Shown here: piece after piece, positions 733-64,000 of the stretch
Numbering within the stretch: the stretch's first letter is position 1
How the letters are laid out: the number at the start of each line of letters is the position of its first letter
Assembly: GCA_963768655.1 (NCBI GenBank)
Contig: CAVYIM010000003.1
Location: forward strand, 717,682-781,681
DNA: 64,000 nt
Direction: 5' to 3'
DNA from: an uncultured Chloroflexia bacterium
GTDB taxonomy: Bacteria > Chloroflexota > Limnocylindria > Limnocylindrales > CSP1-4
Notes under the pieces: generated by a model
Seen by the model: the letters and a program-made list of their open reading frames with translations, nothing else
Told to the model about the DNA's origin: nothing
Database searches by the model: none
Made by a program: the position numbers and the translations under genes

Positions 733-1503
733 ATGGGCCCACCGACCATGCCTGCAGTTGTGCCCATCGCAGATCTCCTCATCCATGACGTCGATCCAGA
801 TGAAACCAATTCCTTGCTCTTGAGCTGGCTGTCCAATCCTGGCCCTGGCGCCTACTACGTGTGCACGCCGAACGTGGACTATGTCGTGAGGTCGCGTCGC
901 AATGAGCGTTTTCGCGACGCGATCAACGCGGCCGACTTGCGTGTACCCGACGGGATGTGGATCGTCTACGCGTCTCGACTCGCCGGGCGACCTCTACGCG
1001 CGAGTGTCACCGGCCGTATGTTGCTGCCCCGTCTCGCCGCCCACTGTCGCGACGATAGCCGCAGCGTTGGGATAGTCGGGGCGGCCGAAGGGGTCGCAGC
1101 CAGGGCCGCGGCGCGGCTTGTCGCCCAGTACCCTGGGCTGGTCGTTCGCCATGCCATATCTCCGCCGATGGGCTTCCAAGTGGGGTCCACTGCGGACAGC
1201 GAGATCCTGGCCGCGCTGAAGAAAGACCCTGTCGACCTGCTATTCGTTGCTCTGGGGGCCCCGAAGCAGGAGATCTGGATGCAGGAGCACCGGGACGACC
1301 TGCCCGGGACCGTACTGATCGGGGTGGGCGCAGGCGTCGACATCTTTGCCGGCCGGTTCCGTGAGGCTCCGCGCTGGATGACCAGGGTCGGGCTCGAATG
1401 GCTGTTCCGTCTCGCCCAGGAGCCCCGTCGCCTCGGGCGGCGGTATCTGGTCGACGACCCGTGGATCCTGCTCTGGGCTGTGAGGACGCGTTTCTCCAGG
1501 TAG
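733..1503 (+). CDS. WecG/TagA/CpsF-family (GT26) glycosyltransferase, ManNAc/ManNAcA-transferase type
   Basis: 256-aa ORF with the conserved GT26 blocks: 'YVCTPNVDYVV', 'LRVPDGMWIVYASRLAG', 'LFVALGAPKQEIWM', 'GVGAGVDIFAG' and 'APRWMTRVGLEWLFRLAQEPRRLGRRYL'. Confidence 0.85.
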   Translation: MGPPTMPAVVPIADLLIHDVDPDETNSLLLSWLSNPGPGAYYVCTPNVDYVVRSRRNERFRDAINAADLRVPDGMWIVYASRLAGRPLRASVTGRMLLPRLAAHCRDDSRSVGIVGAAEGVAARAAARLVAQYPGLVVRHAISPPMGFQVGSTADSEILAALKKDPVDLLFVALGAPKQEIWMQEHRDDLPGTVLIGVGAGVDIFAGRFREAPRWMTRVGLEWLFRLAQEPRRLGRRYLVDDPWILLWAVRTRFSR

Positions 1504-1551
1504 TGGGCAATCCGGCGGATGGGCTATCGCCCCGTTCCCCTGACCTTCGGC

Positions 1552-1596
1552 GGCATGGCATGGCGTGGCGTGGCGGGGCGGGGCGCGGTGCGGCGA
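1552..1596. repeat. G-rich pentanucleotide tract (GGCAT)2(GGCGT)2(GGCGG)2 GGCGC GGTGC GGCGA
   Basis: Read directly: nine consecutive 5-nt units, each starting with GG. The tract lies in the convergent gap between the GT26 gene (stop 1503) and the GT4 gene (stop 1665). Confidence 0.9.
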
Positions 1597-1664
1597 TGAC
1601 TCGGCGGCACCGCCAGGGCGCCCCTCGACGTGTGGCGACAGGCGGGTTCCTGCGGATCGACGCC

Positions 1665-2877
1665 CTACGCCGGCAGCTTATCCATCGGCTCGCGCAGTTT
1701 CGCGCGCGGCCTGACCCGCAGCTGGGAATATAGCTCGTCGATCTGGCCTCGGAGGCGCTCGATGTCGTAGTCGGCTGCCCGAGCGCGAAGCTTCGCGGTC
1801 AGTGCGTCGAGATCGCCTTTTCCAGCCTCGAGCAGTGCGCGGATTGAACCCGCCGCCGCATTCGCGTCGCCGAAGTCGACGAGCTGGCCGCTCAGGCCGC
1901 TGCCCAGCAGGAGCTCATGGGCCGGAATCCGGTTGGCAACGAGCGGCACGCCAGCGGCCATCGCCTCCAGAAGTGCCAGCCCGAAGCCTTCGCCCTTGCT
2001 CGGAAATGCCGCAACGGAGGCGGACTTCAGCAGATCCGGCAATTGCTTCTCTGGAAAGCTGAGGAGATACGTCATGCGATCCGGCACTCCCAGGTCGTCG
2101 ACAAAGGACTTGATCCGGGCCAACTCCTCGGAATCGGGCTCGCCCGCAAGCACGAGCGACCATTCCAGGTCGCAGAATCCGACTCAAAGCCCGAACCAGG
2201 TCAGTCAGGGCCTTGTTGGGAACCAACCTGCCGATGGACACGACTCGGCCCGGGATCGGGGTTCGCTCGAGGCTCAGCAGGTTCTTCAGCGGGAGGGCGT
2301 TCGGGTACGTTACGGTCAGGCCGGCAAGGTAGGGTGCGTCCCGCAGCAACAGAACGCGATCGGCGTCACTGCTGGCTACCGTCCGAACACGCCCCAGGCG
2401 CAACAGCGGCCCGAAGTAGAAGCGCATCGCCAGTCGCTTCCACCGGAGGCCGCCGCCCGAATGGAATATCAGGCCACGGGTATGGAAAATGCGCGGCCGG
2501 CGCGCCACGCTGGCGCCAATCGTGGTACTGGCTATGGCGAAGCGAAGATCGTGCATGTGCACGACATCGTTGCGCACTATCTCTCTCCATATTCGATCCG
2601 GCCGGAAGGTGAAAGCGAACTGCGTTGCGCCCCGGCCCGGGAGGCGAATGACCTCAAGACCATCCACGGTTTCGTGCCCTGGGAGGCCCCTGGTTGGTCC
2701 TGTGACATCCCGATCCAGCGTCACGATCGTCACACGACAACCCGCCTCGGCCTGCGCGACTGCCAGGTCGTGGACAGATTTCTCCGTCCCCCCAATCAAA
2801 GGGCGGAACCGCCGGCAGACGTGGAGGACGCGGAGTGGTACCTCGGATTTCGTGGACGGGCCCACAGGCGACGTCAC
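1665..2877 (-). pseudogene. GT4 (group 1) glycosyltransferase interrupted by one frameshift near 2160-2190
   Basis: ORF 1915..3003(-) carries the N-terminal half ('LRVLHVCRRFRPLIGGTEKSVHDLA', 'SIGRLVPNKALTDLVRAL') and then runs into Arg-rich nonsense. ORF 1665..2153(-), in another frame, carries the C-terminal half ('LEWSLVLAGEPDSEE', 'FPSKGEGFGLALLEAMAAGVPLVAN'). Removing one nt near 2186 joins them. The start is probably GTG 2877 or 2865. Confidence 0.75.
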
Positions 2878-3108
2878 GATTCCGAACCACCCGGGCTCGC
2901 TGCCGCCCGGCAGCGCGTCCGAGCTGTGACTGTGGCTGCCATCGACCGGAAGACTGGATCGTGACAGGGGCAACGGGACGCCCAACCGAGATCGTGCATC
3001 CACGTAGTGTATCGATTGACCTGCTCAGGGTGTCGGGCTGAGCTGTTCAACCGGCCACCGACAAGCCAGCGGCTTTGGTAGCATCCCGGGGTGCTGATAG
3101 GAGAGCCC

Positions 3109-4344
3109 ATGGATTCCCAAGCGCCCGCGCTGCCCGCTATCGATATGCCTGCCGACCCCCTCGATCTCGCGGTTGTCGGGGGCGGAGGGCACGTCGGGCT
3201 TCCGTTGAGCCTGGCATTTGCCCAAGCAGGGCTTCGAGTCGGCATCTACGACACGTCCCAGCCAACACTGGACACCATCGCCCAGGGGACGATGCCGTTT
3301 CGCGAGGTCGGCGCGCCCGAGCTGCTCGTGCAGATGCTTGCCGCGGGCCGGTTGGACCTGAGCTCGTCGCCGGCGATGTTGCAGCGAACAGCGAACGTGA
3401 TCCTCGTGGTTGGCACGCCAATCGACGAGTTCATGCATCCTTCCCTGGCCGTCTTCGACAAGGTGGCCGATCAGATTGCACCGCATCTCAACCCGGGGAC
3501 CCTGGTGATCCTTCGAAGCACCGTCTACCCCGGCACTTCACAGTACCTGAGCCAGGCCCTCGCGGTCCGCGGCGCGAAGGTGAGCGTGGCCTTCTGCCCG
3601 GAGAGGATTGCCGAGGGAAACGCCCTCGAAGAGCTGCGCCAGCTTCCGAACATCGTCGGTGCTGACGAAGTTGAGGCCGGCGACCGCACCGAGGCCCTGT
3701 TCGCGCATCTGGCGAGTGCGGTAATCAGAACCACAACTCAGGAAGCGGAGCTAGCCAAGCTGCTCACCAACGCCTGGCGCTATCTGAAGTTCGCCATCGC
3801 GAACCAGTTTCTCGTCATGTCGCACACTGCCGGCATCGACTATGGGCACGTCCTGGAGGCGATGAAGACAGGTTACCCACGCGCCGCCGACGTGCCGGCT
3901 CCTGGCTTCGCCGCAGGTCCGTGCCTTCTCAAGGACACCATGCAACTGGCCGCGCTCGCGACCGACCACTTCGCCCTTGGCCACGCCGCCGTTCAGGCCA
4001 ACGAGGGTCTGCCCGCGTTCGTCGTCGGTGCGCTCAAGAAGCGATACGGCGACCTTCAGGGAAGAACCGTAGGCGTCCTGGGGATGTCGTTCAAGCCGGA
4101 GTCGGACGATGTTCGATCGTCGCTCAGCTACAAGCTTCGCAAGCTCCTGATTTGGACGGGCGCCACCGTCCTCTGCACCGACCCATACGTCCACGACGTG
4201 CGGCTGGTGTCTTTGGAGCGAGTGATGGCAGAGGCCGAGATTCTCGTCCTGGGCGTTCCTCACCGCGCCTACCGAGAGCTCGACCTCACCGGGCGCGAGG
4301 TCGTGGACATCTGGGGGGCGCTGGGACAGGGCGTGCGAGTCTGA
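3109..4344 (+). CDS. nucleotide-sugar dehydrogenase (UDP-glucose/GDP-mannose dehydrogenase family), copy 1
   Basis: Rossmann motif 'AVVGGGGHVGLPLSLAFA', plus 'VVGTPIDE', 'FCPERIAEGNA' and 'GVLGMSFKPESDDVRSS'. AGGAG lies 5 nt upstream of ATG 3109. The ORF itself opens at GTG 3091. Confidence 0.85.
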   Translation: MDSQAPALPAIDMPADPLDLAVVGGGGHVGLPLSLAFAQAGLRVGIYDTSQPTLDTIAQGTMPFREVGAPELLVQMLAAGRLDLSSSPAMLQRTANVILVVGTPIDEFMHPSLAVFDKVADQIAPHLNPGTLVILRSTVYPGTSQYLSQALAVRGAKVSVAFCPERIAEGNALEELRQLPNIVGADEVEAGDRTEALFAHLASAVIRTTTQEAELAKLLTNAWRYLKFAIANQFLVMSHTAGIDYGHVLEAMKTGYPRAADVPAPGFAAGPCLLKDTMQLAALATDHFALGHAAVQANEGLPAFVVGALKKRYGDLQGRTVGVLGMSFKPESDDVRSSLSYKLRKLLIWTGATVLCTDPYVHDVRLVSLERVMAEAEILVLGVPHRAYRELDLTGREVVDIWGALGQGVRV

Positions 4345-4406
4345 CGCTCGCGACCGAGCTCTCGGGCTGTCCCGCTACATCGACCCATCGCAGCACGGCA
4401 GGCGGT

Positions 4407-5861
4407 TCACGACGGAGTGTCGGCGATCTCCCGTAGCCGGCTCCGGGCAGCGAGGGCATTGAGCAGATACGCGCCCTCGAGAATGAAATACACGACCCCG
4501 AAGACCGCGAGGGCGCCCGGGGCGGCAGCGGAGACGGGCAGAGCGGAGCGGGCGAAGAGCGCGGGCACAGTGGCAACGCCGGCCAGGAGCAGGGGCCTGA
4601 CAAGCAGTCGCCCCCTATCGACGTGGCCGATCGCGCGGCGCATGGCTCGCTCGTACAGCAGGAACAAGGCCAAGGAGCTACACAGGAGGCCAGCCACCGC
4701 GCCACCGATGCCCAGCGTCGGCAATGTGACGACATCGATGAGAATCAGGACGATGAGTGAGGCCACGAGCGCGACGAGCCTCGGCATCTGGGCATCGCCG
4801 CCCGTGAGCAGCGTCCCGTACAGATACCCAACAAACCGGAATGGCAACGCCAGCGCGATCCAGGCCATGATCCAGCCGAAGGATGTGACGTCGGGGCCGT
4901 AGGTAACCTGCAGCAGCCAGCTACCGCCCAGCATCATGGCAAACGGTACCGGCACGGACAGAGTGAGCAGGATCTCGATCGCAGGCGCCGTAACCCGCTG
5001 ATTCACGCTGGGGTCCCGGCTCCCTAAGGCCTTCGACACGTCCGGCAGAACGGCTCGGCCGACGGTTGAAGGGAAATACTCGAAGGCGGTGACGAGCCGG
5101 GTCGCGGCGTAGTAGGCGCCGGCGGCAGCCACCGCGCCCGTGGGCAGCAGGACGCCGATCAAGATGGTATCGATCCGTTGGGAAGCGGCCGATGCCATGC
5201 TGAATGCCTCGAAGACCGGCAGCTCGCGGAGTATGGCGCGCACGTCGTCTCGGCGGAACATTCGGAGCGGCCAGCCGAACGCCCACGCCAGCGCAACGAT
5301 GCCGGCCGAGGATATGCACATCACGGCCAGGCCGAGGTCGAACGCAACCGTCGTCGAGACGCCGCGATCGAGAGCGATCCAGATGACGGCGAGCCAAACA
5401 AGGTTCTCCACGGTGCCGTGGATGCCCGCGACCATCATTCGGTTGAACGCGATGAAGACACCGCGCCCCGTGTCGGCCACCTGTTGGACGGCTATGTTCA
5501 GGGCCACGATCATGATCTCCAGCCCTTGCCCCGGAAACGCGTAGGCGACGAAGAGAGCGGCCAACGCGGTCGTCAGGGGAAGCAGGATTGCGCGCAGAGC
5601 CAGCAGCGCTGCGAGGTAGCGGCCCGAACAGTCGGGAGCCCGAGCGATCTCCCGGACCAGCAAAAGGCCCATCGAGGCCTCTGACGCCGCCCCGAGGAGG
5701 GTGCCGACAGTAAGTCCGATCGCTACGGCGCCGAGCTCTTCTGCGCCCCTTTGACGCGCCACGACCGCGAGGACGACCAGGGTGGTGCCCGCGCCGGCGA
5801 GGCGAGCCACGAGAAGCGGCACCGTCTTGCGCGCGACGCCTGCACGCCCCGCGCTAGCCAA
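4407..5861 (-). CDS. Wzx-like polysaccharide flippase (MOP/PST superfamily), copy 1
   Basis: 484-aa ORF that is almost entirely hydrophobic helices. The N-terminus 'KTVPLLVARLAGAGTTLVVLAVVARQRGAEELG' is typical of polysaccharide biosynthesis (Wzx) proteins. TTG start at 5861, exact start uncertain. Confidence 0.75.
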   Translation of the reverse strand: MASAGRAGVARKTVPLLVARLAGAGTTLVVLAVVARQRGAEELGAVAIGLTVGTLLGAASEASMGLLLVREIARAPDCSGRYLAALLALRAILLPLTTALAALFVAYAFPGQGLEIMIVALNIAVQQVADTGRGVFIAFNRMMVAGIHGTVENLVWLAVIWIALDRGVSTTVAFDLGLAVMCISSAGIVALAWAFGWPLRMFRRDDVRAILRELPVFEAFSMASAASQRIDTILIGVLLPTGAVAAAGAYYAATRLVTAFEYFPSTVGRAVLPDVSKALGSRDPSVNQRVTAPAIEILLTLSVPVPFAMMLGGSWLLQVTYGPDVTSFGWIMAWIALALPFRFVGYLYGTLLTGGDAQMPRLVALVASLIVLILIDVVTLPTLGIGGAVAGLLCSSLALFLLYERAMRRAIGHVDRGRLLVRPLLLAGVATVPALFARSALPVSAAAPGALAVFGVVYFILEGAYLLNALAARSRLREIADTPS

Positions 5862-6128
5862 GGCTGATGTACCCGACCTTCGCGTTGCCTCTTCGTACTA
5901 ACACGGGCGACATGGTATCTCAGCTCGGCGAGGCGGATGTGCCTGCCGAGGTACCGGGCGGGTCGGCCAGGTTCGTGCCGACTGAAGCCGGCCGCCGGAC
6001 CGCCGGCCGGCAGCCACGATCGACCAGCTGACCTGGATGTGGCCTACGTCTTCGAGGGTCTTCAGGCTAGCCAGTCCCGGACTAAGGTGCCATTCCTCAG
6101 GAAGGGGCGTGGGGCGTAGATTCGGGTT

Positions 6129-53795: not shown

Positions 53796-55213
53796 GCGCT
53801 GCCCCTCCTGGTGTGCTGGGCGATGTCGCCGAGCGCCTCGACCAGCCGGTCGATCTCGGCCGCAGTGTTGTAGTGGACGAAGCCTGCGCGCACCATGCCG
53901 CCCGATTCGGCCAGTCCGAGGGCGCGGATCAGCTCGTACGCATAGTAGTCGCCGTCCCACACGGCGATGCCGCGCCGGCCGAGCTCCGTGGCGACCCGGC
54001 GCGGCGAGTGGCCTGCCAGCGTGAAGGCGAAGGTCGGGACGCGCTCGGCCAGACGGTTCGGGTCGACGACGCCGCGCAGCCTCAAGCCCGGCACATCGCC
54101 CAACGCCGTCAGCGCGCGCCGGGCCAGAGCTCGCTCCGTGGCGCCGATGACCGCCATGGCCGCGCGGAGTCGGGCGCGCCGCGTCGCGGCCGCGCCACTT
54201 CCCGCGCCGCTCCCACCGCTCTCACCGGCTCCGCCACCGGGCGCGGCGCCGCCACTTGCCGCGCCACCCGTGCCGTACGTCTTGCCCAGCCACTCCAGAT
54301 ACTCGAACGTGGCAAGCAACCCGGCCAGCGACTCGCCCGGGAGAGTGCCTGTCTCCCATTTGCCCGGCGACTCGTTCGGGGCCGGTCGGACCTTGTATGC
54401 GGCCAGGCTCTCGAGCAGATCGCGCCGCCCGTAGAGGAGCCCCAGATGTGGCCCGAAGAACTTGTAGGGGGAGCAGACCAGGAAGTCGGCCCCCAATGCC
54501 GCCACGTCAAGCGGCACGTGCGGCGCCGCATGAACGGCGTCCACGTACGTGAGTGCGCCGGCGGCGTGGGCCATCTCCACGATCCGGGGGATCGGATTGA
54601 GAGTGCCCACGGCGTTCGAGGCGAGCCCGACGGCGACCAGGCGCGTGCGCGGCCCAAGCGCTCGCTCGAGGCCGTCCACATCGAGCGTGCAATCTTCCGG
54701 ATGGATGCCGATCCATCGGACCCGGACGCCGCGTTCGCCTTCGAGTGCCAGCCAGGGCGCGACGTTGGCGTCGTGGTCCAAGTGCGTGACCACGACCTCG
54801 TCGCCTGCTTCGAGCGTCCGCCCGATCGCCCGGCTCAGCGCGAAGGTGAGCGTGGTCATGTTCTGCCCGAAGACGATTTCGCCGGCATCGGCCGCCCCGA
54901 CGTAGTCCGCCGCGGCGGCATGAACCTCGGCCAGCATGGCGTCGCTTTCCTCGCTCGTCGGGAATGCGCCGTCGTGGTTGGCGTTGAAGCGCTCCAGGTA
55001 TTGCGCCATGGCGTCGATCGTGCGGCGCGGTACCTGCGTACCGCCGGGGCCGTCCAGGTACACATACGGCCGGCCGTCGTGCTCGCGCGAGAGGGCGGGG
55101 AACTGCGCTCGGATCGCCTTGAGTCCCGCCTCCGTCAGTGGCGTGGCTGCTGCACCCGCGAGCGTAGCTGGCGTCGTGGACGAGGCATGGGAGTCGATAC
55201 GATCGGCCGGCAT
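53792..55213 (-). CDS. class-V aminotransferase / cysteine-desulfurase-like PLP enzyme with a Gly-rich insertion
   Basis: 'VYLDGPGGTQVP', 'THLDHDANVAPW', 'YVDAVHAAPH', 'FLVCSPYKFFGPHLG' (PLP Lys) and 'FVHYNTAAEIDRL'. ~30-aa insertion 'GTGGAASGGAAPGGGAGESGGSGAGSGAAA'. ATG 55213 is chosen as the start; the ORF opens at 55357. Confidence 0.8.
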   Translation of the reverse strand: MPADRIDSHASSTTPATLAGAAATPLTEAGLKAIRAQFPALSREHDGRPYVYLDGPGGTQVPRRTIDAMAQYLERFNANHDGAFPTSEESDAMLAEVHAAAADYVGAADAGEIVFGQNMTTLTFALSRAIGRTLEAGDEVVVTHLDHDANVAPWLALEGERGVRVRWIGIHPEDCTLDVDGLERALGPRTRLVAVGLASNAVGTLNPIPRIVEMAHAAGALTYVDAVHAAPHVPLDVAALGADFLVCSPYKFFGPHLGLLYGRRDLLESLAAYKVRPAPNESPGKWETGTLPGESLAGLLATFEYLEWLGKTYGTGGAASGGAAPGGGAGESGGSGAGSGAAATRRARLRAAMAVIGATERALARRALTALGDVPGLRLRGVVDPNRLAERVPTFAFTLAGHSPRRVATELGRRGIAVWDGDYYAYELIRALGLAESGGMVRAGFVHYNTAAEIDRLVEALGDIAQHTRRGSA

Positions 55214-55492
55214 GGTGCTCCGCGATAGAGCGGTGAGAAACCCGTTGATGGTACGACGCGTCGGCCGCCCGCGGCTCGCCCGCGGCCCAGTGAGATCCGC
55301 CTCGCCCCGATCGGGCCGCCGCCGCAGGCGCGTCAGATGAACATCATGCAACCTCACCGGACGCCCTCAAGCTGCAACGAAATCGCAGGGTCCTGGGCCG
55401 GCTTGAGACGCCAGATTGACGGTCTCTGGCGTTCCATCCCACAAGTAAGGGTAGTGGTAGGAGGACCATTTGGCAGGCGCCGGACGGGCCAC

Positions 55493-55521
55493 TTGACTAA
55501 TCCTGAGTAACTGTGTATACA
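55493..55521 (+). promoter_or_regulatory. candidate promoter TTGACT-17 nt-TATACA overlapping the palindrome TGTATACA
   Basis: It lies in the lowest-GC patch I noticed in the window ('ttgactaatcctgagtaactgtgtatacattagg'). This is the divergent region between the aminotransferase gene and the IclR gene. Confidence 0.3.
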
Positions 55522-55717
55522 TTAGGACGTTCCGCTGGGCGAGACGAAAGCAGCGGCCGGGACCTCACCGGCAGGCTCGGATCGGCCGGTCAGCGGATCT
55601 CCTGACAGACGCAGATAGCCTCGCTCCGGTTCGGGCGCGGAGCGACGAAACCAACGGGCCAAGTCTGCCGACAGGCAGATCGGCGGCCCACCAGGTGGCA
55701 GCCCGCAAGGAGTAACA

Positions 55718-56488
55718 GTGGTGCTCGACGGGAACGCGGTTCGGTCCGTTGACCGAGCGGCCTCACTCCTGATCGCTTTGGGGGAATCGCCAGGCGAGGC
55801 GGGCGTAACGGAACTCGCCCGGCGCCTGGGACTCCACAAGTCCACCGCGTCGCGCTTGCTGGCGACGCTTCAGAAGCGGGGCCTGGTGGAGCAGGACGAC
55901 GACTCGGGCAAGTACCGGCTCGGACTCGCCGTCGTTCGGCTCGGCGGTCATGCCGAGCGGACACTCGATCTGCGGTCGATCGCGATGCCGGAGCTCGAAG
56001 GACTCGCGCGTGGTATCAAGGAAACCACGACGCTGGAGATCCTCGAGGGCGACACCGCACTGACGATCGCCTATTCGGACGCCTCGGGAATGGGCCGCGA
56101 CCGGTCGGGCCGAAGCTCACCGCTCCACGCCACGGCCCCGGGCAAGATCCTGCTCGCAAATCAGCCCGAACGTGAGGTCATCCGACTCTCGAAGGTCGGC
56201 TTCACGCCGTACACCTCCCACACCATCGTTCGCGTCGATCTGCTGCTCGAAGAGCTGGCTCGCGTTCGCAAGCGCGGCTTCGCCACTGCCTTCGGCGAGT
56301 TCGAACCGTCGGTCAACGCCATCTCCGTGCCCGTCTACGATCAGCGGACCTCGGTCGTGGCGGCGCTCGAGGTCAGAGCCTCGGGCAATCGCATCCTGCC
56401 CAGCCGTGTGCCCGAGCTGGTGGAGCGGGCCCGCGACGCTGCCGCCGTGATCACGGAGCGCATCGGCGGGGTCGCCGCCGCGGTCTAG
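55718..56488 (+). CDS. IclR-family transcriptional regulator
   Basis: wHTH 'SVDRAASLLIALGESPGEAGVTELARRLGLHKSTASRLLATLQKRGLVEQD'. IclR effector domain 'PLHATAPGKILLA', 'YTSHTI' and 'GFATAFGEFEPSVNAISVPV'. Confidence 0.9.
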   Translation: MVLDGNAVRSVDRAASLLIALGESPGEAGVTELARRLGLHKSTASRLLATLQKRGLVEQDDDSGKYRLGLAVVRLGGHAERTLDLRSIAMPELEGLARGIKETTTLEILEGDTALTIAYSDASGMGRDRSGRSSPLHATAPGKILLANQPEREVIRLSKVGFTPYTSHTIVRVDLLLEELARVRKRGFATAFGEFEPSVNAISVPVYDQRTSVVAALEVRASGNRILPSRVPELVERARDAAAVITERIGGVAAAV

Positions 56489-56626
56489 GCTCCGGCCTCC
56501 TCGGCTGGCCTACGCGCCGGGCCAGGAGCGACAACCACACAAGTCCACCTTTCGCGGCCCCTCGGTCCCCCTCCCGAGGGGCCGCGCCATATCTGCCAGC
56601 CGCGCGGCCCGAGCCCGCGCTAGGCT

Positions 56627-57562
56627 ATGGGGATGCCAGCCCTCGCGATCAACGTGACTCCGCCCTGGGGCGGTTCGCAGCAGGATCTGGGTCCGTACCT
56701 CGGTCCCGCCGCGGCGTTCATCGGCATCCTGATCGCGGCCGCGATCATCATCAGGCTGACTCATGTCTTCGTCCGCGGCATCGTACGGACACTCCTCAAC
56801 CGCGAGAACGTGGAGGGGACCGCCCACGAGCTGACGGCCGCCGAGCTCAGGAAACGCCAGGACACGATCGAGACCCTGGTCGTCAACGTGGTCCGATTCT
56901 TCGTCGTCGTGATCGCGGCCCTGATGGTCCTCGAGACGGCCTTCAGCCTCGATGTCGGTCCCGCCATTGCCGGCCTGGGGATCATCGGCATCGCGGTCGG
57001 CCTGGGCACGCAGAGCCTGGTCCGCGACTACCTCAACGGGGCCCTGGTCTTGATCGAGAACCAGTACTCGATCGGCGACGTGGTCAAGATTGCCGGCGTC
57101 TCGGGCAAAGTCGAGGACTTCACGCTTCGGAGGACGACGCTGCGCGACCAGGATGGCGCGGTGCACACGGTGCCCAACGGCCTCATCACGGTGGCCACGA
57201 ATCTCACGCGCGAGTGGGCGCGCGTGAACGAAGACGTTCGCGTGGTCTACGGCACGGACATCGAGAAGGCCACCGCCGTGGTGGACCGCGTCGGGCGACA
57301 GCTGGCGTCGGAATTGGATTGGGGCCCCCGGATCCTGGAGGCGCCGCGGGTCGAGCGGGTGTCACAGCTGGGCGAATTCGGGGTGACGCTCAAGGTCCTG
57401 GGGACCGTAAGGGCGTCGGAGCAGTGGGCCGTCAGCGGTGAGCTTCGCAAACGGATCCTGGCCGCGTTCGCGGAGTCCGGCATCGAGATGCCGCAGCCGC
57501 AGCGAATCGTCCTGGCCGGGCCGAAAGCACGCGGCGCCAGGCCCCGGCCGAAAGCGGAGTAG
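56627..57562 (+). CDS. MscS-family mechanosensitive channel
   Basis: Three TM helices, then 'LIENQYSIGDVVKIAGVSGKVEDFTLRRTTLRDQDGAVHTVPNG'. Confidence 0.85.
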   Translation: MGMPALAINVTPPWGGSQQDLGPYLGPAAAFIGILIAAAIIIRLTHVFVRGIVRTLLNRENVEGTAHELTAAELRKRQDTIETLVVNVVRFFVVVIAALMVLETAFSLDVGPAIAGLGIIGIAVGLGTQSLVRDYLNGALVLIENQYSIGDVVKIAGVSGKVEDFTLRRTTLRDQDGAVHTVPNGLITVATNLTREWARVNEDVRVVYGTDIEKATAVVDRVGRQLASELDWGPRILEAPRVERVSQLGEFGVTLKVLGTVRASEQWAVSGELRKRILAAFAESGIEMPQPQRIVLAGPKARGARPRPKAE

Positions 57563-57629
57563 GCAGAAGCAGGCCGGGGCGAGGGGACGAGAAGCAGGAG
57601 AGACGCCCGGCGTCGGCCGGGGCGATGAC

Positions 57630-58886
57630 CTACGAGGCGCGAACCGATGGGTTGGTGTTCCGCCCGCCGCCGAAGATTCCGAGGAAGCCGCTGCCGACCT
57701 TGGCCACGCCGGGCTCGGCCGTGGCGATCATGCGGTCCGCGAGCGCTTCGATGTCCTCGATGACCTTCTCCTTGGGGAAACGCTCGACGGCGGAGCGGCC
57801 CTCGTTGGCGGCTCGAACGAAGAGCATGCCGGCAGACCGAATCTCCGCCAGGGCGGGCATGCCGACGGTCCGTTCCATGTCACCAACCGACACGCCGCTG
57901 TTGGCACGGTTCACGACCATGGCCAGGCGCTCGCGGATCTCGAGCTCGACTGCCACCTCGCGGAGCTGGACCGCGGCCCGGATGGCCGGCACGTCGGGCG
58001 TTACCGGCACCAGAATCTTGTCGGCCCGCTCGAAGATGACCTGGTTGAGGGGCCCGTAGTCCGGGTGCATGTCGACGACGACCCAGTCGAAGGCCTGACG
58101 AGCGGCGGTGATCGCCTCGGCCACCCGCTTCGGCTCGAGGATCTCAGTGTGCAGCGGTGACTCCGCCATCACCAGCACCGCGACGCCGTTGTGATGGGCG
58201 GACGCGATCTCGGCGAAGGACTCGGCCGCGCCCGTTGTGAGGTCTTCCGTCCACGCATCCGCGACGGTGCGGACGTTCTCCATGCCCAGCGACGAGGCCA
58301 CGTGCCCCGTCACGGTATCGCAGTCAACCAGCAGCACGCGCTGCCCCTTGCGGAGCTGCAGCATCGCCGCAACGTTGACCGCAATCGTCGTCTTGCCAAC
58401 GCCGCCCTTGGGGTTGAACACGATGACGATCTGGCCGCGGCGGGAGTCTCCGGCGTCAACCGACGGAACGTCGTCTGTGTGGATCACGCCGCCGGTGGAC
58501 TCGTCCGTGGGAATCTCGGCGCGGATGAGCATCGCCTCGACGCGCCAGCGCAGCGACTCCGCAGAGTAGGGGCGAGTGAAGTACTCGTCACTGACACGGG
58601 CTCGTCCCGCCATCCCCATCCGGTCCAGCGCCCGGGCCGCAACGACCATCAGCGCCGGGATGTTGCGATCCTCTTCGTGGAGGAGGGCGTACATCTCGAT
58701 CGTTCGATCGAAGTCGTTCTCCGCGTCCAGGATGGCCACGCCGATGTCGTTGCGCAGGCTCAGGAGAGTCTCGAGCTCATCGGCAGTGTTGACGGCGATG
58801 GCGTCGTAGCCGGCCTCGATCAGCTGTGCGGCGACAGCGGCCAGCTCCGCGGGCGGTAGGGCGATTGCGACTGCTGACCGGGGCAC
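57630..58886 (-). CDS. TadZ/CpaE-like protein: pseudo-receiver domain fused to a ParA/MinD-type ATPase
   Basis: The N-terminal ~125 aa have a receiver-like fold ('GVAILDAEND', 'FTRPYS') but lack the N-terminal acidic pair. Deviant Walker A 'VFNPKGGVGKTTIAVNVAA'. Also 'LLVDCD' and 'VVVDMHPD'. Confidence 0.8.
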   Translation of the reverse strand: MPRSAVAIALPPAELAAVAAQLIEAGYDAIAVNTADELETLLSLRNDIGVAILDAENDFDRTIEMYALLHEEDRNIPALMVVAARALDRMGMAGRARVSDEYFTRPYSAESLRWRVEAMLIRAEIPTDESTGGVIHTDDVPSVDAGDSRRGQIVIVFNPKGGVGKTTIAVNVAAMLQLRKGQRVLLVDCDTVTGHVASSLGMENVRTVADAWTEDLTTGAAESFAEIASAHHNGVAVLVMAESPLHTEILEPKRVAEAITAARQAFDWVVVDMHPDYGPLNQVIFERADKILVPVTPDVPAIRAAVQLREVAVELEIRERLAMVVNRANSGVSVGDMERTVGMPALAEIRSAGMLFVRAANEGRSAVERFPKEKVIEDIEALADRMIATAEPGVAKVGSGFLGIFGGGRNTNPSVRAS

Positions 58887-58930
58887 TGTGACGGGGTCTC
58901 CCTTGGGTGCGCGGGCGGGACTCGGTAAGT

Positions 58931-59866
58931 CTAGCCTTCCGCCTCCGGGTCATGTGCGGAGACGTTGAGCACGCCATCGCGCTCAGAGACGACTCTGGCC
59001 TGGAAGTTGGGCAGCGTGGGGATGAGCGAACCCAACGAGATCTCCGGGCCGTGACCCACGGTAAAGATGAACTCGCCGTCCGGGCCGGACGAGACGCCGA
59101 CGTTCTTGACGCCTGGCAGGCGCCCGAGTTGGCGCTTGAACGTGGCAATGCTGGCCACGCTGACGAGCCCGACGACGACGACCTGAGTGGACTCGGGCAC
59201 CTCTGGCTTGGGCACGGCAGCGGCACGGGCGGCCCTGGCGGCCTCCTCTTCGGCGGCTGCAGCAGCTGCTTCATCTTCGGCGGATGGCCCCGGGGGAGGA
59301 GCCACCGGCGCCTCCGCTTCGCTGCCGAGCAGGTCCTCGGTGCGCATGATCTTCTCGCGCCGGGCCTTGATCTCGGTCGCGAGAGTGCCCCGTTCGGATT
59401 CCGCAAAGGTCGGCGGATCCGGCATCTGCGCGGCCATGCTGGCGAAGACCGTTGGGTCGGCTTCCTGGAGAAGCTGCTCGAAGAATTGGGCGACTTCTTC
59501 CTCGAACCCCGATACGCGCTTCTGGACGCGCTCGATCTCGAACTCGATGGCGGAGTTGTACTCCTGGAGCTCCTGCTCGAGCAGCTCGCGACGCCGGGCG
59601 ATCCGCTGCTCCGTCTCGACACGGATGCGCTCTACTTCTGCCTTGGACCAATCACGGATGGCGCTGACATCGGCTTCGGCGCCCTTGCGCAGGGACGCCG
59701 CCTCGTCGTCCGTGCGGGCGTGGAGCTTCTCGACGTAAACCTTCGCATCTGCCTGGCACTGATCAATCGTCGCCTGCCGCGCCGTCTCGGCGGTCGAACG
59801 CATGGCCTGCGTGAGGTCCGCCAGGAATTGGTTCGGATGACGCGCGGCCGTGTCGTTCACGCTCAT
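58931..59866 (-). CDS. coiled-coil protein, long paralog (N-terminal ~155-aa helical domain + linker + ~85-aa C-terminal alpha/beta domain)
   Basis: 'LADLTQAMRSTAETARQA', 'RIRVETEQRIARRRELLEQELQEY' and 'FFEQLLQEADPTVFASMAAQMPDPP'. C-terminus 'VVVVGLVSVASIATFKRQLGRLPGVKNVGVSSGPDGEFIFTVGH'. GGGGAG precedes the ATG. No family recognised. Confidence 0.7.
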   Translation of the reverse strand: MSVNDTAARHPNQFLADLTQAMRSTAETARQATIDQCQADAKVYVEKLHARTDDEAASLRKGAEADVSAIRDWSKAEVERIRVETEQRIARRRELLEQELQEYNSAIEFEIERVQKRVSGFEEEVAQFFEQLLQEADPTVFASMAAQMPDPPTFAESERGTLATEIKARREKIMRTEDLLGSEAEAPVAPPPGPSAEDEAAAAAAEEEAARAARAAAVPKPEVPESTQVVVVGLVSVASIATFKRQLGRLPGVKNVGVSSGPDGEFIFTVGHGPEISLGSLIPTLPNFQARVVSERDGVLNVSAHDPEAEG

Positions 59867-60031
59867 CTCCCCGTTCGTTTCTCCGGGCCCCGGCCGGGCG
59901 CCGGAGTCTACCCGATTTCGTATGCTACCCCGCGCTTGACCCCAGGAACGTTACCGCAACGGGCCCGCGGCTCCAAGCGTAATTATCGCGGGTCCAAGGG
60001 TTCGCATCCGGAGACTTTCGCTCTGTTGGAT

Positions 60032-60099
60032 CATGGGCCGGGTGTTGCCGCCGGGCACTCCGCTGGAGGTACCAGGACTAACCGCCCTTCCGTACCGCC
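60032..60099. promoter_or_regulatory. conserved 68-nt element, copy A (166 nt upstream of the long coiled-coil gene)
   Basis: An ungapped alignment with 61079-61146 gives 57/68 identical positions, counted by hand. The core is gctggaggtaccaggac.aac.gccctt.cgtaccgcc. Confidence 0.6.
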
Positions 60100-60217
60100 T
60101 TACAGCCGCCCGCCTCCGCACGCGTGGCCACCGGAGACCCGGATGACGAGCTGTCGCGACGGGCCGGGGCGGTTCAGAGGCGGGCGACGCCCAGGCGCGA
60201 TGGGCCCGAGATCGCCT

Positions 60218-60925
60218 CTACCGGTGCTCTTCCGCCTGGGTTCGGGCCGCGCCGGTGGCGGATTCCCTCCACCAGCGGCCCCGAGGCTCCTCCGGCTTCT
60301 GGCCGTTGGAGCCGGCCGTCGGCGGGGCCTCCATCGGCGGGGCCTCCGGAGCCGGAGCGGCGGCCGTTTCGAGGGGTTCGCCGCGTGCAGCTCGTTCAGC
60401 CCGCTCGCGTCTCTCTCGGAGCTCGGCGGCGAACGACTCTCGGTCCAGATCGGCGAAGACGGGCGGATCGGGCATCTTGGATGCCATGGTGGCGAAGACG
60501 GTGGGATCCGCGCTGCCCTGGAGGAGCTGCTCGAAGAACTGAGATACCTCGGTCTGGAAGCTCTCGATCCGTTCCTGAACGCTGCCGATCTCCGCCTCGA
60601 CGTCGGCGTGGAACTCCGTCAGCTCCTGCTCGAGCAGCTGGCGGCGTCGCAGGATACGTTGCTCCGTTTCCTGGCGAACTCGTTCCACCCTGGCCCTCGC
60701 TCGCTCGCGGATGGTGGCCACGTCGGCCTCCGATGCCTGCCGCAGCACCTCGGAATCTTCCAGCGTTCGCGCGCGGAGCTGTTCGATGTATGTTTTGGCG
60801 TCGTTCTGGCACTTTTCGAAGTCAGCCTGCCGCGAGGCATCAGCGGCCGAGCGCATAGCCTGAGTCAGATCCGCCATCAAACGGTTCTGGTGCTGCGCCG
60901 CCGAGTCGTTCACGCTGATCTCCAT
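60218..60925 (-). CDS. coiled-coil protein, short paralog (helical domain only)
   Basis: 'MADLTQAMRSAADASRQA', 'RVRQETEQRILRRRQLLEQELTEF' and 'FFEQLLQGSADPTVFATMASKMPDPP'. It is collinear with the N-terminal domain of 58931..59866. Confidence 0.7.
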   Translation of the reverse strand: MEISVNDSAAQHQNRLMADLTQAMRSAADASRQADFEKCQNDAKTYIEQLRARTLEDSEVLRQASEADVATIRERARARVERVRQETEQRILRRRQLLEQELTEFHADVEAEIGSVQERIESFQTEVSQFFEQLLQGSADPTVFATMASKMPDPPVFADLDRESFAAELRERRERAERAARGEPLETAAAPAPEAPPMEAPPTAGSNGQKPEEPRGRWWRESATGAARTQAEEHR

Positions 60926-61078
60926 GGTCCCAGCCCCCGCATCCTCGAAGAGCGGGGGCTAGAGGCCCACGATACTACCCCGCGTCCCGCCCGCGCCCAA
61001 CCATGACACACCAGGCACCTCGAGACGCCAGCCCATTGTTGCCAGTCCCAGGCCGGGCGGCGAGGGACTTTTCCCAAG

Positions 61079-61146
61079 CATGGGCGGGGTGCTGCCCGCC
61101 AGCACCCGGCTGGAGGTACCAGGACCAACGGCCCTTACGTACCGCC
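61079..61146. promoter_or_regulatory. conserved 68-nt element, copy B (154 nt upstream of the short coiled-coil gene)
   Basis: See copy A. A second shared block, CGCGGGGTAG(C/T)AT on the minus strand (59924-59934 and 60974-60984), lies ~50-60 nt upstream of each start and could hold the -10 box. Confidence 0.6.
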
Positions 61147-61187
61147 GCACGCGGCATGTCAGGCCCGCGAAGTTGGCCGACGCAGCC

Positions 61188-61976
61188 TCAAGTCTCGGGC
61201 GGCCCCGGAGGATCCGAGCGAGCCCTCGTTGCTCTGTCGGCCCAGGCCGCCAGGACCCGGTCCTTGTGCGGGCGGATGGGGCAATGCTCGTCGCGGTTGG
61301 CGGCCTCGTCACAGTAGCCGAGAGGCACGCACTTGGGGGCGAGGAAACTGCCCAGGAACGGGCTGACGGCGAAGACCTCGTGGCGGACGAGCTGAAAGAG
61401 CCGCCGGATCTCCCACTGGGCCATCGTGCACAGCCGCAGGCCGGACATGTGGATCAGAGCGCGGAGGTTCGCCGTCATGACCAGGTTCGTGCGCGTGGCG
61501 TTGGGAAAGACGAAGCGGGCGTCCTCGCCTGGTATGCCGGCATCGAGGAGCTCCGAGTACACCTCGAGCGCCCCTTCGAGCTGATCCTCGTAGCGGCGCA
61601 GCAGCTCTGGATCGGCCTCGGCGATGGTCGCCGGCAGCATTGTGGAAGCGCCCTTCTTGTACGAGACGTACCGCTGGCTCTGCTGGTCGAAGGCGACGCC
61701 GGCTCGATGTCGGACGAGCTGGTGGCTGAGGGTTCGGCTGACCCCGGTGATCGCAAACGTGAAGACGACATGCTCGATGGTCGAGCCGTGCCCGGATTCG
61801 ATCACCCGGCCGATCAGCTCGCGCTGTTTCTCCGGTGTGATCCGCCCGTCGACCGCGCGCTCGAAGATGTCGTCCGGGGCGAGCTCCGAGTAGCAGGTGC
61901 GGCACGCCGTGTAGATGAGCGGTACGTAGTAGCGCTCGACGATCTCACGACTGGGGAAGATGAGCGTGGCTCTCAT
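61188..61976 (-). CDS. thyX: FAD-dependent thymidylate synthase
   Basis: ThyX signature 'LVRHRAGVAFDQQSQRYV', plus 'GHGSTIEHVVFTF' and 'TNLVMTANLRALIHM'. The start is ambiguous: ATG 61976, ATG 62009 or GTG 62072. Confidence 0.9.
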   Translation of the reverse strand: MRATLIFPSREIVERYYVPLIYTACRTCYSELAPDDIFERAVDGRITPEKQRELIGRVIESGHGSTIEHVVFTFAITGVSRTLSHQLVRHRAGVAFDQQSQRYVSYKKGASTMLPATIAEADPELLRRYEDQLEGALEVYSELLDAGIPGEDARFVFPNATRTNLVMTANLRALIHMSGLRLCTMAQWEIRRLFQLVRHEVFAVSPFLGSFLAPKCVPLGYCDEAANRDEHCPIRPHKDRVLAAWADRATRARSDPPGPPET

Positions 61977-62232
61977 GCCAAGGTCGTGGCGACCCGGGTT
62001 GCGCGGCATCGCGGAGCTGGCTGTGCTGACTGGAGCGCCGGGGGAACTCGCGGCGCCGGGATCGACGGTCACCGCGTCAGGATAGCGACTCCGATCGGCT
62101 CCCGACCGCTCGTGCCCGGATTACCCGCATGCTGCGACGGGCCCCTGAGTCTGTCTCGCATGTAGTCGTCATCGACTGTTGAGAGACAAAGTAGCCGTTG
62201 ACGGCTATCAGATCCTTTGTTAGCCTGATGGC

Positions 62233-62901
62233 GTGGATGAGGCGCGAGGACTGGTGCTGTTCGGCGACGTGGTCGGGTCGCGGCGCGACCCTTCCGGGGC
62301 CGCCGAATGGCTGCGCCGCCTCGTCGACGAGCTGGACCAGGCCTATGGCGAGCAACGGCTGGCCCCTTTCGGGTTCACCCAGGGCGATGAGTTGCAGGGG
62401 CTGCTGGTTGCCGATGCGGATCCACTGGTGGCGGTCCTGCACGCGGATCTCAATCCATCGGCGCGACCGATGCGCTGGGTGTGCGTGAAAGGCGGAGTGG
62501 ATCCGGGAGAGGGGCCGGCCACGCAGCGTACGGGCCCGGCCTTCCTGGCGGCTCGAGACGCGATCGAGGCGGCTCGAGCGGGGCACGATCGCCTGGTCAT
62601 ACAGACCGGCCAGACGGAGGTAGATGAGCTTCTTGCCGGCATGACGCCGGCCCTGGCCGACATGCTGGAGGGCTTGACGCCGCGCCAGCGCGCCGTCGGC
62701 CGCCTGGCTTTGATCGAAGGCCTGCGCCAGTCGGAAGTCGCGGACCGGCTGGGCGTGCGCCGGGCCACGATCTCGGTTTCGTTCGGACGGGCCAGGGTCC
62801 AAACCCTGCAGCGGCTCGTGGCCGCGATCCGCAAGGTCTACTCCAGTGCCGGCGCCAGCGCCGGCGCTCAGGCGAGTGGCGCCACCGGAACCGGCGCCTA
62901 A
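62233..62901 (+). CDS. SatD-like protein (cyclase-like N-domain + C-terminal HTH)
   Basis: 'LVLFGDVVGSRRD', 'FGFTQGDELQGLL', 'RWVCVKGGVD' and 'GPAFLAARDAIEAAR'. HTH 'LTPRQRAVGRLALIEGLRQSEVADRLGVRRATISVSF'. The family is recalled from memory. Confidence 0.65.
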   Translation: MDEARGLVLFGDVVGSRRDPSGAAEWLRRLVDELDQAYGEQRLAPFGFTQGDELQGLLVADADPLVAVLHADLNPSARPMRWVCVKGGVDPGEGPATQRTGPAFLAARDAIEAARAGHDRLVIQTGQTEVDELLAGMTPALADMLEGLTPRQRAVGRLALIEGLRQSEVADRLGVRRATISVSFGRARVQTLQRLVAAIRKVYSSAGASAGAQASGATGTGA

Positions 62902-62912
62902 GGGAGAACGTC

Positions 62913-63824
62913 GTGACCGAACCGCTGCTCCTGCTCGGCTGGCTCCTGGTGAGCCACCTCACGGCCGATTTCGTTCTCCAGACGGACGCGAGCGTCGCCG
63001 ACCGGAACGAGTCGGGGCCACGGGCGCGGCGCGCCCTCGGGTTTCATGCCCTGGTTGTCGCCGCCGCCATGGCGCCTTTCTGGCTCGCCTTCGGGACGCC
63101 GGGTTTTCTCGCCCTGCTCGTGGCCGCCATACCTCATCCGTTCATCGATGCCGTCAAGACGCGCGTCACCGAGACGCGCCGCGGTGCTTCCGCCCAGACG
63201 GAATGGTCCCCCTGGCCGGCCGGCCTCTTCCTGGCGGACCAGGCGGCCCACCTGGGGCTCTTGCTGGGGGCGTGGTGGGTCTTCCTGCGTGACGCCGCCT
63301 TGAACCCGTGGTTTGCCGACCGTGTGGCGGGGGCGACGTCGGGAATTGCCGCGTCGGACGTCCACAGCGCGGCCCTCATTCTTATCGTCGGCTGGTCCCT
63401 GGCGGTGATCAACGGGCGGGCGGCCCGGTTCTTCGTGCCGCTCCTGCTCCCGCCGGAGGCTGGATCGGGCGTGGCCACGGCGGCATCGGGCGGCGCGCCG
63501 GGGGTCACACTCCAACGGGCGGGCGGCTACAGCGTCAAGCTTGGCCCCGTGTCGGGCCGTATCGAGCCGGACCATCCTCCCGTTGTCGAGACCCCGGACA
63601 ACGTCGGCGCCGTCGTAGGTGTACTCGAGCGGCTGCTGGTGGTCATCCTGGTCCTCGACCACGCGGAGCTCGCCATCGGGCTCGTCGTGGCGGCCAAGAC
63701 GCTGGCGCGGTTCAAGCAGCTCGACGAGCGGCCGTTCGCGGAGAAATACCTGGTCGGGACGCTGGCGAGCGTGACCGTGGCGGTGGCGAGCGGTCTGGCG
63801 GCTCGAGCCGTGCTGGGCGTCTAG
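62913..63824 (+). CDS. DUF3307-like membrane protein with an extended C-terminal half
   Basis: 'LLVSHLTADFVLQTD' (H-x3-DF-x2-Q) and 'IPHPFIDAVK'. Several TM helices, a Gly/Ala linker and a further hydrophobic C-terminal region. Confidence 0.65.
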   Translation: MTEPLLLLGWLLVSHLTADFVLQTDASVADRNESGPRARRALGFHALVVAAAMAPFWLAFGTPGFLALLVAAIPHPFIDAVKTRVTETRRGASAQTEWSPWPAGLFLADQAAHLGLLLGAWWVFLRDAALNPWFADRVAGATSGIAASDVHSAALILIVGWSLAVINGRAARFFVPLLLPPEAGSGVATAASGGAPGVTLQRAGGYSVKLGPVSGRIEPDHPPVVETPDNVGAVVGVLERLLVVILVLDHAELAIGLVVAAKTLARFKQLDERPFAEKYLVGTLASVTVAVASGLAARAVLGV

Positions 63825-63860
63825 TTCGGCCGGTCCCGCGCGGGCCGCGGTCGTGCCACC

Positions 63861-64000
63861 TCAGCCGATGACGTGGGCCAGGCGCAGGCACAGCGCGCCG
63901 ATCCCGGCCAGCGACCACGACACCCACAAGACGGCGATGAGCGTTGGCACGCGATTCTCGATCAGCCGGCGGGTGGCGCTGAACGGCTCGATCAACCTGT
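63861..64000 (-). CDS. 3' end of a membrane protein gene whose start lies beyond the window
   Basis: The minus-strand frame is open from the window edge to TGA (complement of 63861-63863). It translates as '...IENRVPTLIAVLWVSWSLAGIGALCLRLAHVIG'. Confidence 0.3.
   Translation of the reverse strand, partial: RLIEPFSATRRLIENRVPTLIAVLWVSWSLAGIGALCLRLAHVIG

Follow-up and report, generated by a model that had tools for sequence, protein, structure and literature searches.

A ParA/MinD-type ATPase and its probable dedicated helical partner in Limnocylindria: a candidate spatial-organisation module

ATPases of the ParA/MinD type organise chromosomes, division rings, carboxysomes, chemoreceptor arrays and pili, and to our knowledge every new pair of such an ATPase with a partner has brought to light either a cargo or a mode of reading cell geometry that was new. 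In the PomXYZ system of Myxococcus xanthus and in McdA/McdB, the ATPase gene lies beside one or two genes for coiled-coil or disordered partners, and stimulation of the ATPase comes from a short basic peptide at the partner's N terminus. The membrane-targeting sequence of Escherichia coli MinD is the short peptide KGFLKRLFGG. Here we describe a ParA/MinD ATPase with a dedicated partner, a long helical protein of a family that has not been described before, encoded in a stretch of 64,000 nucleotides (the window; C3:717682-781681, that is, positions on contig C3) of a 3.37-Mb, 9-contig metagenome-assembled genome from the Chloroflexota class Candidatus Limnocylindria. The sequences suggest, with a probability that we put at about one half, that the two genes form an orphan ParA/MinD-type spatial-organisation module specific to Limnocylindria.

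The pair and a short paralog of the helical gene are read from the minus strand, with coordinates taken from a six-frame list of open reading frames in the window:

57630-58886, minus strand: ATPase gene, 418 amino acids, GTG start
58887-58930, minus strand: spacer between the long helical gene and the ATPase gene, 44 nt, with an AAGGGAG Shine-Dalgarno-like run
58931-59866, minus strand: long helical gene, 311 amino acids
60218-60925, minus strand: short helical paralog, 235 amino acids

The order on this strand, short helical gene, long helical gene and then, after 44 nt, ATPase gene, is the one given in an earlier note on this DNA, and the reading-frame coordinates agree with it. Since no terminator is predicted on the minus strand at the junction of the long helical gene and the ATPase gene, these two are probably co-transcribed.

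That the two genes belong together is seen when their linkage is followed through the class. Of 81 loci, 78 have the two genes side by side or otherwise linked; three gene orders occur, and in the majority of these 78 loci the genes are 9-52 nt apart. In the close clade of the window, the pair is surrounded by thyX, MscS, IclR, aminotransferase and ankyrin genes, and because the whole region is syntenic there, adjacency in this clade is not independent evidence. In relatives with 38-45% identity, the flanks consist of other genes, which lie on the opposite strand (MoaA upstream and acetyl-CoA synthetase downstream), and the ATPase gene still follows 9-62 nt after the helical gene. In the family-level lineage f3, the order is either ATPase gene and then helical gene (genomes G009, G058 and G097) or helical gene, ValS, an unknown gene and ATPase gene, in a cluster beside fhaA/fhaB. 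In locus L088 of genome G070 (f3; 1055-5980), for instance, the ATPase orthologue has zinc-ribbon proteins as neighbours and is followed immediately downstream by fhaA/fhaB-type FHA genes, and ValS and an unknown gene of 298 amino acids separate it from the helical gene. Among 41 genomes of the class, both genes occur in 24, neither in 16 and the helical gene alone in one, in which it sits at the end of a contig. The helical family and the ATPase orthologue are, in other words, present or absent together in 40 of the 41 genomes, and the association between them that the earlier note had suspected extends well beyond this locus. Among the genomes without either gene are G187, which represents a loss within the family of the window, and the streamlined f2 genomes of 1.1-1.2 Mb. 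Because the linkage outlasts flank turnover, three gene orders and joint loss, a functional coupling of helical gene and ATPase appears well supported by the comparison of genomes, and from the same comparison we infer a physical interaction between the two proteins.

The partner family itself is large and narrowly distributed. An exhaustive profile search found 1123 cluster representatives at 50% identity, and a separate scan of GTDB species genomes found 465 loci. In the 80 of the 465 loci that were listed by title, the titles are Chloroflexi/Chloroflexota, Limnocylindria/-ales or Chloroflexia, save eight (Anaerolineaceae 5, Thermomicrobiales 1, Sulfotelmatobacter 1, Sulfomarinibacteraceae 1). 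In a phylum-wide sample, the family occurs in 30 of 33 Limnocylindria genomes and in none of 268 genomes of other Chloroflexota; among the 41 class genomes it occurs in 25, limited to two family-level lineages, f1 and f3. Most members are 390-680 amino acids long and consist, from N to C terminus, of an N-terminal peptide, an acidic disordered stretch, the helical domain, a second disordered stretch and a C-terminal domain (C-domain), where the N-terminal peptide, M-A-[ST]-T-[ED]-x-[RK]-x-GFRLPW, is invariant in most members. Proteins of the window clade (at least 62% identity to the window protein) are built differently, in that they begin directly at the helical domain and lack the GFRLPW peptide. 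The short paralog is found in about half of the window's close clade and is a clade-specific extra, not a core part. The proposal in the earlier note that the coiled-coil proteins are partners of the ATPase is supported by linkage and co-inheritance. No paper on the helical family or on cell division in Limnocylindria was found in the literature.

The two helical proteins of the window share 95 of 163 aligned residues (58%, E = 5e-59, BLASTP of short against long), and the motifs common to both, ADLTQAMRS, ETEQRI.RRR.LLEQEL and FFEQLLQ..DPTVFA.MA..MPDPP, lie inside the aligned stretch, as expected from the shared domain that the earlier note had described. In an AlphaFold2 model of the long protein, built on an alignment of 25 sequences, residues 11-134 (about 124 residues) form a single unbroken helix with a predicted local distance difference test score (pLDDT) above 90, and short helices are placed around the DPTVFA..A..MPDPP.F motif. 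Residues 178-223 form a disordered linker, variable in the alignments and rich in Ala, Pro and Glu, and residues ~224-305 a ferredoxin-like C-domain with the order b-a-b-b-a-b-b, which is the additional alpha/beta domain that had been noted before in the long paralog alone. The short paralog has the same helical domain and the MPDPP motif, lacks the C-terminal globular domain and ends in a Trp-rich sequence, which is PRGRWW in the window and LPDHWW[LM]DSP in most relatives (24 orthologues). Helix and C-domain are under strong purifying selection, with 75-90% identity in the top 120 database matches, and the linker varies freely.

In both paralogs, the long helix has its largest hydrophobic moment at a period of 3.7 residues, with a power reached by 1 and 2 of 500 shuffles, so that the hydrophobic pattern is a hendecad (11-residue) and not a heptad one. 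This pattern is probably also the origin of the two weak Pfam matches, of which the highest-ranking is Apolipoprotein, with 22-27 bits where the cut-off is 90 (E = 3e-6 and 2e-4), and the other is Phasin, sub-threshold at E = 0.014. For neither helical protein is a threshold of Pfam, NCBIfam or PDB sequences reached. The profile of the helical protein, run against PDB sequences, gave matches at chance level only, and Foldseek, run on the whole model and on the C-domain alone, gave no match at E<=0.001. The family that was not recognised in the earlier note is thus not recognised by Pfam, NCBIfam or PDB either, and the known unrelated families which that note had held up against its own idea, such as an ATP-synthase stalk or DivIVA, are not what the helical domain turns out to be, as it matches no curated family.

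The C-domain can be described somewhat further. When modelled in isolation with 37 diverse sequences, it has a pLDDT of 91.5 and a predicted template-modelling score (pTM) of 0.82, and its nearest PDB structures are HMA metal-binding domains, at template-modelling scores of ~0.5-0.55 and a Foldseek E of ~0.01, which is below significance. HMA is also its top Pfam match, sub-threshold at E = 0.05. The GMTCxxC loop by which HMA domains (PF00403) bind metal is missing, and at its position there is an invariant GLVSVAS, in which Ser replaces Cys. Because of this replacement we read the modelled C-domain as an HMA-like fold that would lack metal ligands.

The ATPase has two parts. Residues ~150-390 form a P-loop ATPase domain of the MinD/ParA type, with NPKGGVGKTT, LLVDCD and VVVDMHPD, and the domain exceeds the Pfam cut-offs of AAA_31 (1.4e-20), CbiA, ParA and MipZ. 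It has the signature lysine and the Walker A' and Walker B aspartates of the ParA/MinD (SIMIBI, deviant Walker A) superfamily, and 67 orthologues show no or almost no variation in the P-loop, LLVD.D..TGH, D.HPD and the VPVTPDVPAIRAA block. Since the deviant Walker A motif is intact and carries its signature lysine, the protein is expected to assemble into sandwich dimers with ATP, as MinD and ParA do. Residues 18-125 align weakly to PhoB/OmpR receivers. The aspartate at the phospho-acceptor position (Asp54) is kept in 65 of the 67 orthologues, the acidic pair has given way to an invariant L-P-x-x-E, and the Lys-Pro of receivers is Arg-Pro here; from these three features taken together, the N-terminal ~125 residues are, as judged from the alignment, a degenerate receiver. 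The earlier reading of the gene as a pseudo-receiver joined to a KGGVGKTT ATPase is therefore sound.

When the ATPase is compared with the curated families of its superfamily, it falls between them. Its best NCBIfam match by E-value is the ParA partition ATPase (NF041546; 1.9e-21), at 76.6 bits against a cut-off of 180; the model TIGR03815 for the actinobacterial CpaE homologue Ssd is second best, at 75.5 bits against 154.45, and the bacterial MinD model (minD_bact, TIGR01968) gives 58.4 bits against 212.9, so that the curated cut-off is reached for none of the three. The closest solved sequences in the PDB are ParA, MinD, Soj and FleN. With TadZ/CpaE/Ssd it shares the two-domain architecture of atypical receiver and ParA/MinD ATPase, a receiver without the acidic Mg2+ pair, and AAA_31 and TIGR03815 among its best models; it differs from them by its score for TIGR03815, its place outside a Tad locus and its linkage to a helical gene. 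The label 'TadZ/CpaE-like', which the earlier note had used, is accordingly apt for the domain architecture, but not for the P-loop, which is a canonical KGGVGKT, nor for the Ssd/CpaE score.

With MinD the likeness is of another kind. The KGGxxGK[ST] deviant Walker A is common to both, a partner gene lies next door, as in MinD-MinE/MinC, and the tail of the window ATPase, GFLGIFGG..R, is near the E. coli MinD sequence. The tail of the window protein, GSGFLGIFGGGRNTNPSVRAS, is conserved; over the last 20 residues the close clade reads GSGF[LM]GIFGGGRNTNPSVRAS, distant clades have GFRLPTR, SLLGGIFG or GFLGNLL, and Phe405 and Arg416-Ala417 are nearly invariant in the 67 orthologues. The tail thereby resembles the short MinD membrane-targeting sequence and may be a membrane anchor. 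In some lineages of the distant clades, the ATPase tail repeats the GFRLP core of the partner's own N-terminal peptide. Unlike MinD, the window ATPase has an extra N-terminal degenerate receiver besides its low TIGR01968 score, and its partner, a hendecad coiled-coil protein of ~300-560 amino acids with an HMA-like domain, is unrelated to MinE and MinC. With PomXYZ and McdAB, the likeness lies in the partner, since most Limnocylindria partners carry an invariant N-terminal [RK]-x-GFRLPW before an acidic disordered stretch. The differences are that no sequence similarity of the helical protein to PomX, PomY or McdB was detected in any library, that the window ATPase has a receiver and a hydrophobic tail and no evident DNA-binding signature, and that the window clade is without the N-terminal peptide.

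Consider, then, how a module of this kind might operate. The ATP-bound dimer of the ATPase would dock on a surface, most likely the membrane, by way of the conserved GF[LM]GIF..R tail. The helical protein would be an elongated hendecad coiled-coil scaffold, which recruits the ATPase or is recruited by it, and which controls the ATP cycle of that enzyme. The candidate contact or activating peptide, in most of the class, would be the M-A-[ST]-T-[ED]-x-[RK]-x-GFRLPW sequence at the scaffold's N terminus. The window clade may have lost this peptide, and about half of it may have gained instead the short paralog with its C-terminal LPDHWW motif. The Cys-less HMA-like C-domain would bind a client.

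The most likely role of such a module, although we hold it with low certainty, is that it marks a site on the membrane for cell division or polarity. FtsZ is present in the genome, and MinD is not found above the curated cut-off (TIGR01968) in any of the 41 class genomes. The DivIVA Pfam domain occurs in 0 of 26 genomes of f1 and f3, the lineages with the helical family, and in 9 of 15 from f69 and f70, sister lineages which have neither the helical family nor the ATPase orthologue. The helical protein is like DivIVA in being an elongated coiled coil and in having, within the class, a distribution complementary to it; it is unlike DivIVA in that there is no N-terminal lipid-binding domain and no PF05103 match at E<=0.1 for either helical protein. 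An hhalign comparison of the helical family with a DivIVA protein of the sister lineages was not significant (E = 0.1-0.35). One such protein, of 645 amino acids in genome G306 of f69 (L095:7926-9863), has a DivIVA domain, a long coiled coil rich in Ala, Glu and Arg, and a small C-terminal alpha/beta domain of similar pattern, which hhalign aligns to the window C-domain at E = 0.35. At L095:6840-7514 there is also a divergently oriented gene for a protein of 224 amino acids with a similar end domain, for which hhalign to the window C-domain gives E = 8e-4 and a probability of 25%, a hint only.

The full form of this idea would be that Limnocylindria without MinD and DivIVA use the pair as their division-site or polarity system, in which a receiver-gated, membrane-binding ATPase patterns the scaffold, the HMA-like head binds a client in division or the cell wall, and an operator of GTAC boxes, described below, exerts control. 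In this specific form the idea is speculative, and we regard it as doubtful. Among the roles, we would place the membrane site for division or polarity first, a lipid surface or storage body second, and DNA segregation and pilus localisation last.

Several observations weigh against a ParA/MinD-type module of this kind, or against its part in division. The complementarity of MinD and DivIVA with the pair rests on very few, clade-level evolutionary events, and the streamlined f2 genomes, which have neither MinD, DivIVA nor the pair, still divide. The GFRLPW peptide is missing in the window clade, from which follows that any activation mechanism must differ there. The short ATPase tail ends in an invariant R-A(-S), and a protein-binding peptide fits it equally well as a membrane anchor. 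In one complete genome (locus L081) the helical gene stands directly before a synthetase gene, with no adjacent ATPase. The ATPase, in turn, can exist without an adjacent partner gene, as seen from a solitary paralog in the window's own genome (C5:301254-302453; locus L086, 6147-7472), which is 441 amino acids long and 66% identical to the window ATPase. The paralog has a different tail, ..RWFVRPVRDLLNRL.., and TerB and ABC-transporter genes as flanks, no helical partner gene lies near it, and orthologues of it occur in the sampled genomes of the same genus.

Of the other explanations, the one that survives best, unlikely as we take it to be, is that the helical protein coats a membrane or lipid surface, as an apolipoprotein-, phasin- or PspA-like stress or storage-body protein, and that the ATPase distributes the bodies or patches to the daughters in the manner of McdA. 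A period of 3.7 residues (an 11-mer) is typical of amphipathic helices that lie on surfaces, and the weak, sub-threshold Apolipoprotein and Phasin matches point the same way, but with 27.5 bits against 90 they are far below their cut-offs. An MscS channel gene is a frequent neighbour of the pair, yet it is missing in the G009-type arrangement, no storage-body or microcompartment genes were seen in the neighbourhoods examined, and none of the 41 class genomes has a PhaC_N match (class III/IV synthases were not tested).

It could further be that the genes are neighbours through conserved synteny only and that their functions are unrelated, with, for example, a structural or stress role for the helical protein and a signalling role for the ATPase as a pseudo-response regulator. 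In its favour are the synteny of the whole region in the close clade, where adjacency is not independent evidence, and the existence of the solitary ATPase paralog. It is nevertheless improbable, because it does not account for a linkage that survives complete turnover of the flanks, three gene orders and joint losses, including the one within the family in G187.

The ATPase may, thirdly, be an orphan TadZ/CpaE that places a Tad (type IVc) pilus machine encoded elsewhere, in which case the helical proteins would be unrelated neighbours or pilus accessories. The TadZ-type architecture and the Ssd model as second-best NCBIfam match are in keeping with this, and the genome does contain T2SSE/CpaF-type ATPases, in the form of two T2SSE-family genes at C3:184391 and C3:269818, about 450-590 kb from the window. 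The first of these, of CpaF type, already adjoins a receiver-ParA gene of its own (C3:186072), whose product of 409 amino acids has a canonical receiver (DD...D) and a KGGVGR P-loop and is 29% identical to the window ATPase. The receiver-ParA gene in the C3:184391-186377 pair is the likely genuine TadZ of the organism, and since the CpaF-type gene has this neighbour, the window ATPase is a paralog of the pilus-linked TadZ-type gene and not that gene itself. In every lineage, moreover, it is the helical gene to which the ATPase is linked, the annotated related loci showed no pilus genes, and the 75.5 bits of the ATPase are far from the Ssd/CpaE cut-off of 154.45. The window holds no T2SSE (CpaF-type) gene, in line with the earlier statement that it has no other Tad/Flp genes, although TadB/TadC and Flp pilin were not searched for separately. 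In view of this evidence, a role in pilus placement is very improbable.

Least probable of all is a DNA-segregation system of a chromosome or mobile element, made of a ParA and a novel centromere-binding or adaptor protein, for although the ParA partition ATPase is the best NCBIfam match by E-value (1.9e-21) and partners of ParA are often small, fast-evolving and encoded next door, the score is 76.6 against 180 bits, the helical protein has no helix-turn-helix (HTH), ribbon-helix-helix or ParB-like domain by Pfam, NCBIfam or its AlphaFold2 model, the locus is chromosomal, syntenic across the class and without mobile-element genes, receiver domain and hydrophobic tail are not features of ParA, and two canonical ParA/Soj genes (255-285 amino acids) are already present in the genome, which further has one Mrp/ApbC and two more receiver-ParA genes (C7:4143 and C7:33551).

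We now return to the putative spatial-organisation module and to the DNA in front of its helical genes, where an alignment of 50 loci defines a conserved element, present in the window in two copies with the same conserved boxes:

59998-60116, minus strand: GTAC-box element upstream of the long helical gene
61045-61163, minus strand: second copy of the GTAC-box element, upstream of the short paralog

The features that are invariant in the 50 loci, which span the whole class, are two GTAC boxes with a spacing of exactly 23 nt, a T..C some 12 nt beyond them and, at a fixed distance, a cAnnAT hexamer. In the close clade the start follows the element at a distance of ~200 nt, and in distant clades at ~100 nt. 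In a genome-wide search for pairs of GTAC boxes, only these two copies were found, plus one doubtful site at C7:115806, GGTACCGGCGG..N..AGTACGTCAGG, which is ~100 nt upstream of a gene of 157 amino acids preceding topA and may be due to chance.

The element was also considered as an RNA structure, but single-sequence folds were no better than those of shuffled sequences (z = -1.4 and +0.8), and RNAalifold on the 50 loci gave only the invariant pairing of GTAC with GTAC, with no compensatory changes. An Rfam scan of 55000-64000 at E<=1 gave nothing, and a scan with the sigma-70 consensus gave no promoter. Since the GTAC boxes are conserved without compensatory variation, a DNA-level promoter/operator, with two putative sites for a dedicated factor, fits better than a structured RNA. 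As the same element precedes both helical genes, these are probably co-regulated by one such factor. Short metatranscriptome contigs of relatives (85-95% identity) from peat and wetland cover the ATPase gene, the long helical gene and the element, which means that the genes are expressed in nature; because such contigs run through the element, it is possible that it is part of a transcribed leader.

Two further observations concern other genes. In the window, a SatD-like protein with a sigma-70 region 4 HTH, followed by a DUF3307 membrane protein, is encoded at 62233-63824 on the plus strand, beside thyX, and this arrangement is conserved in the close clade. At L095:1195-5190 (minus strand), in the sister-lineage genome, there is a ribonucleotide-reductase-like reading frame of 1331 amino acids with an apparent intein-like insertion (..NPCFPGDARVHT..VVANCSEY..).

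What the pair adds to the biology of these bacteria is an unannotated partner family, strongly conserved (75-90% identity in an order-level clade) and inherited together with its ATPase in an abundant, uncultured class of soil and freshwater. The domain boundaries are clear, the conserved peptides GFRLPW, LPDHWW and GFLGIF..RA are short, and the operon is small, so that the proposals made here are directly testable by heterologous expression. Should the pair prove to position a pole or the division site, it would close a gap in our picture of division in the Chloroflexota, and as a division or polarity system it would be a previously undescribed, class-specific control of FtsZ placement. If it positions something else, it would define a new class of cargo.

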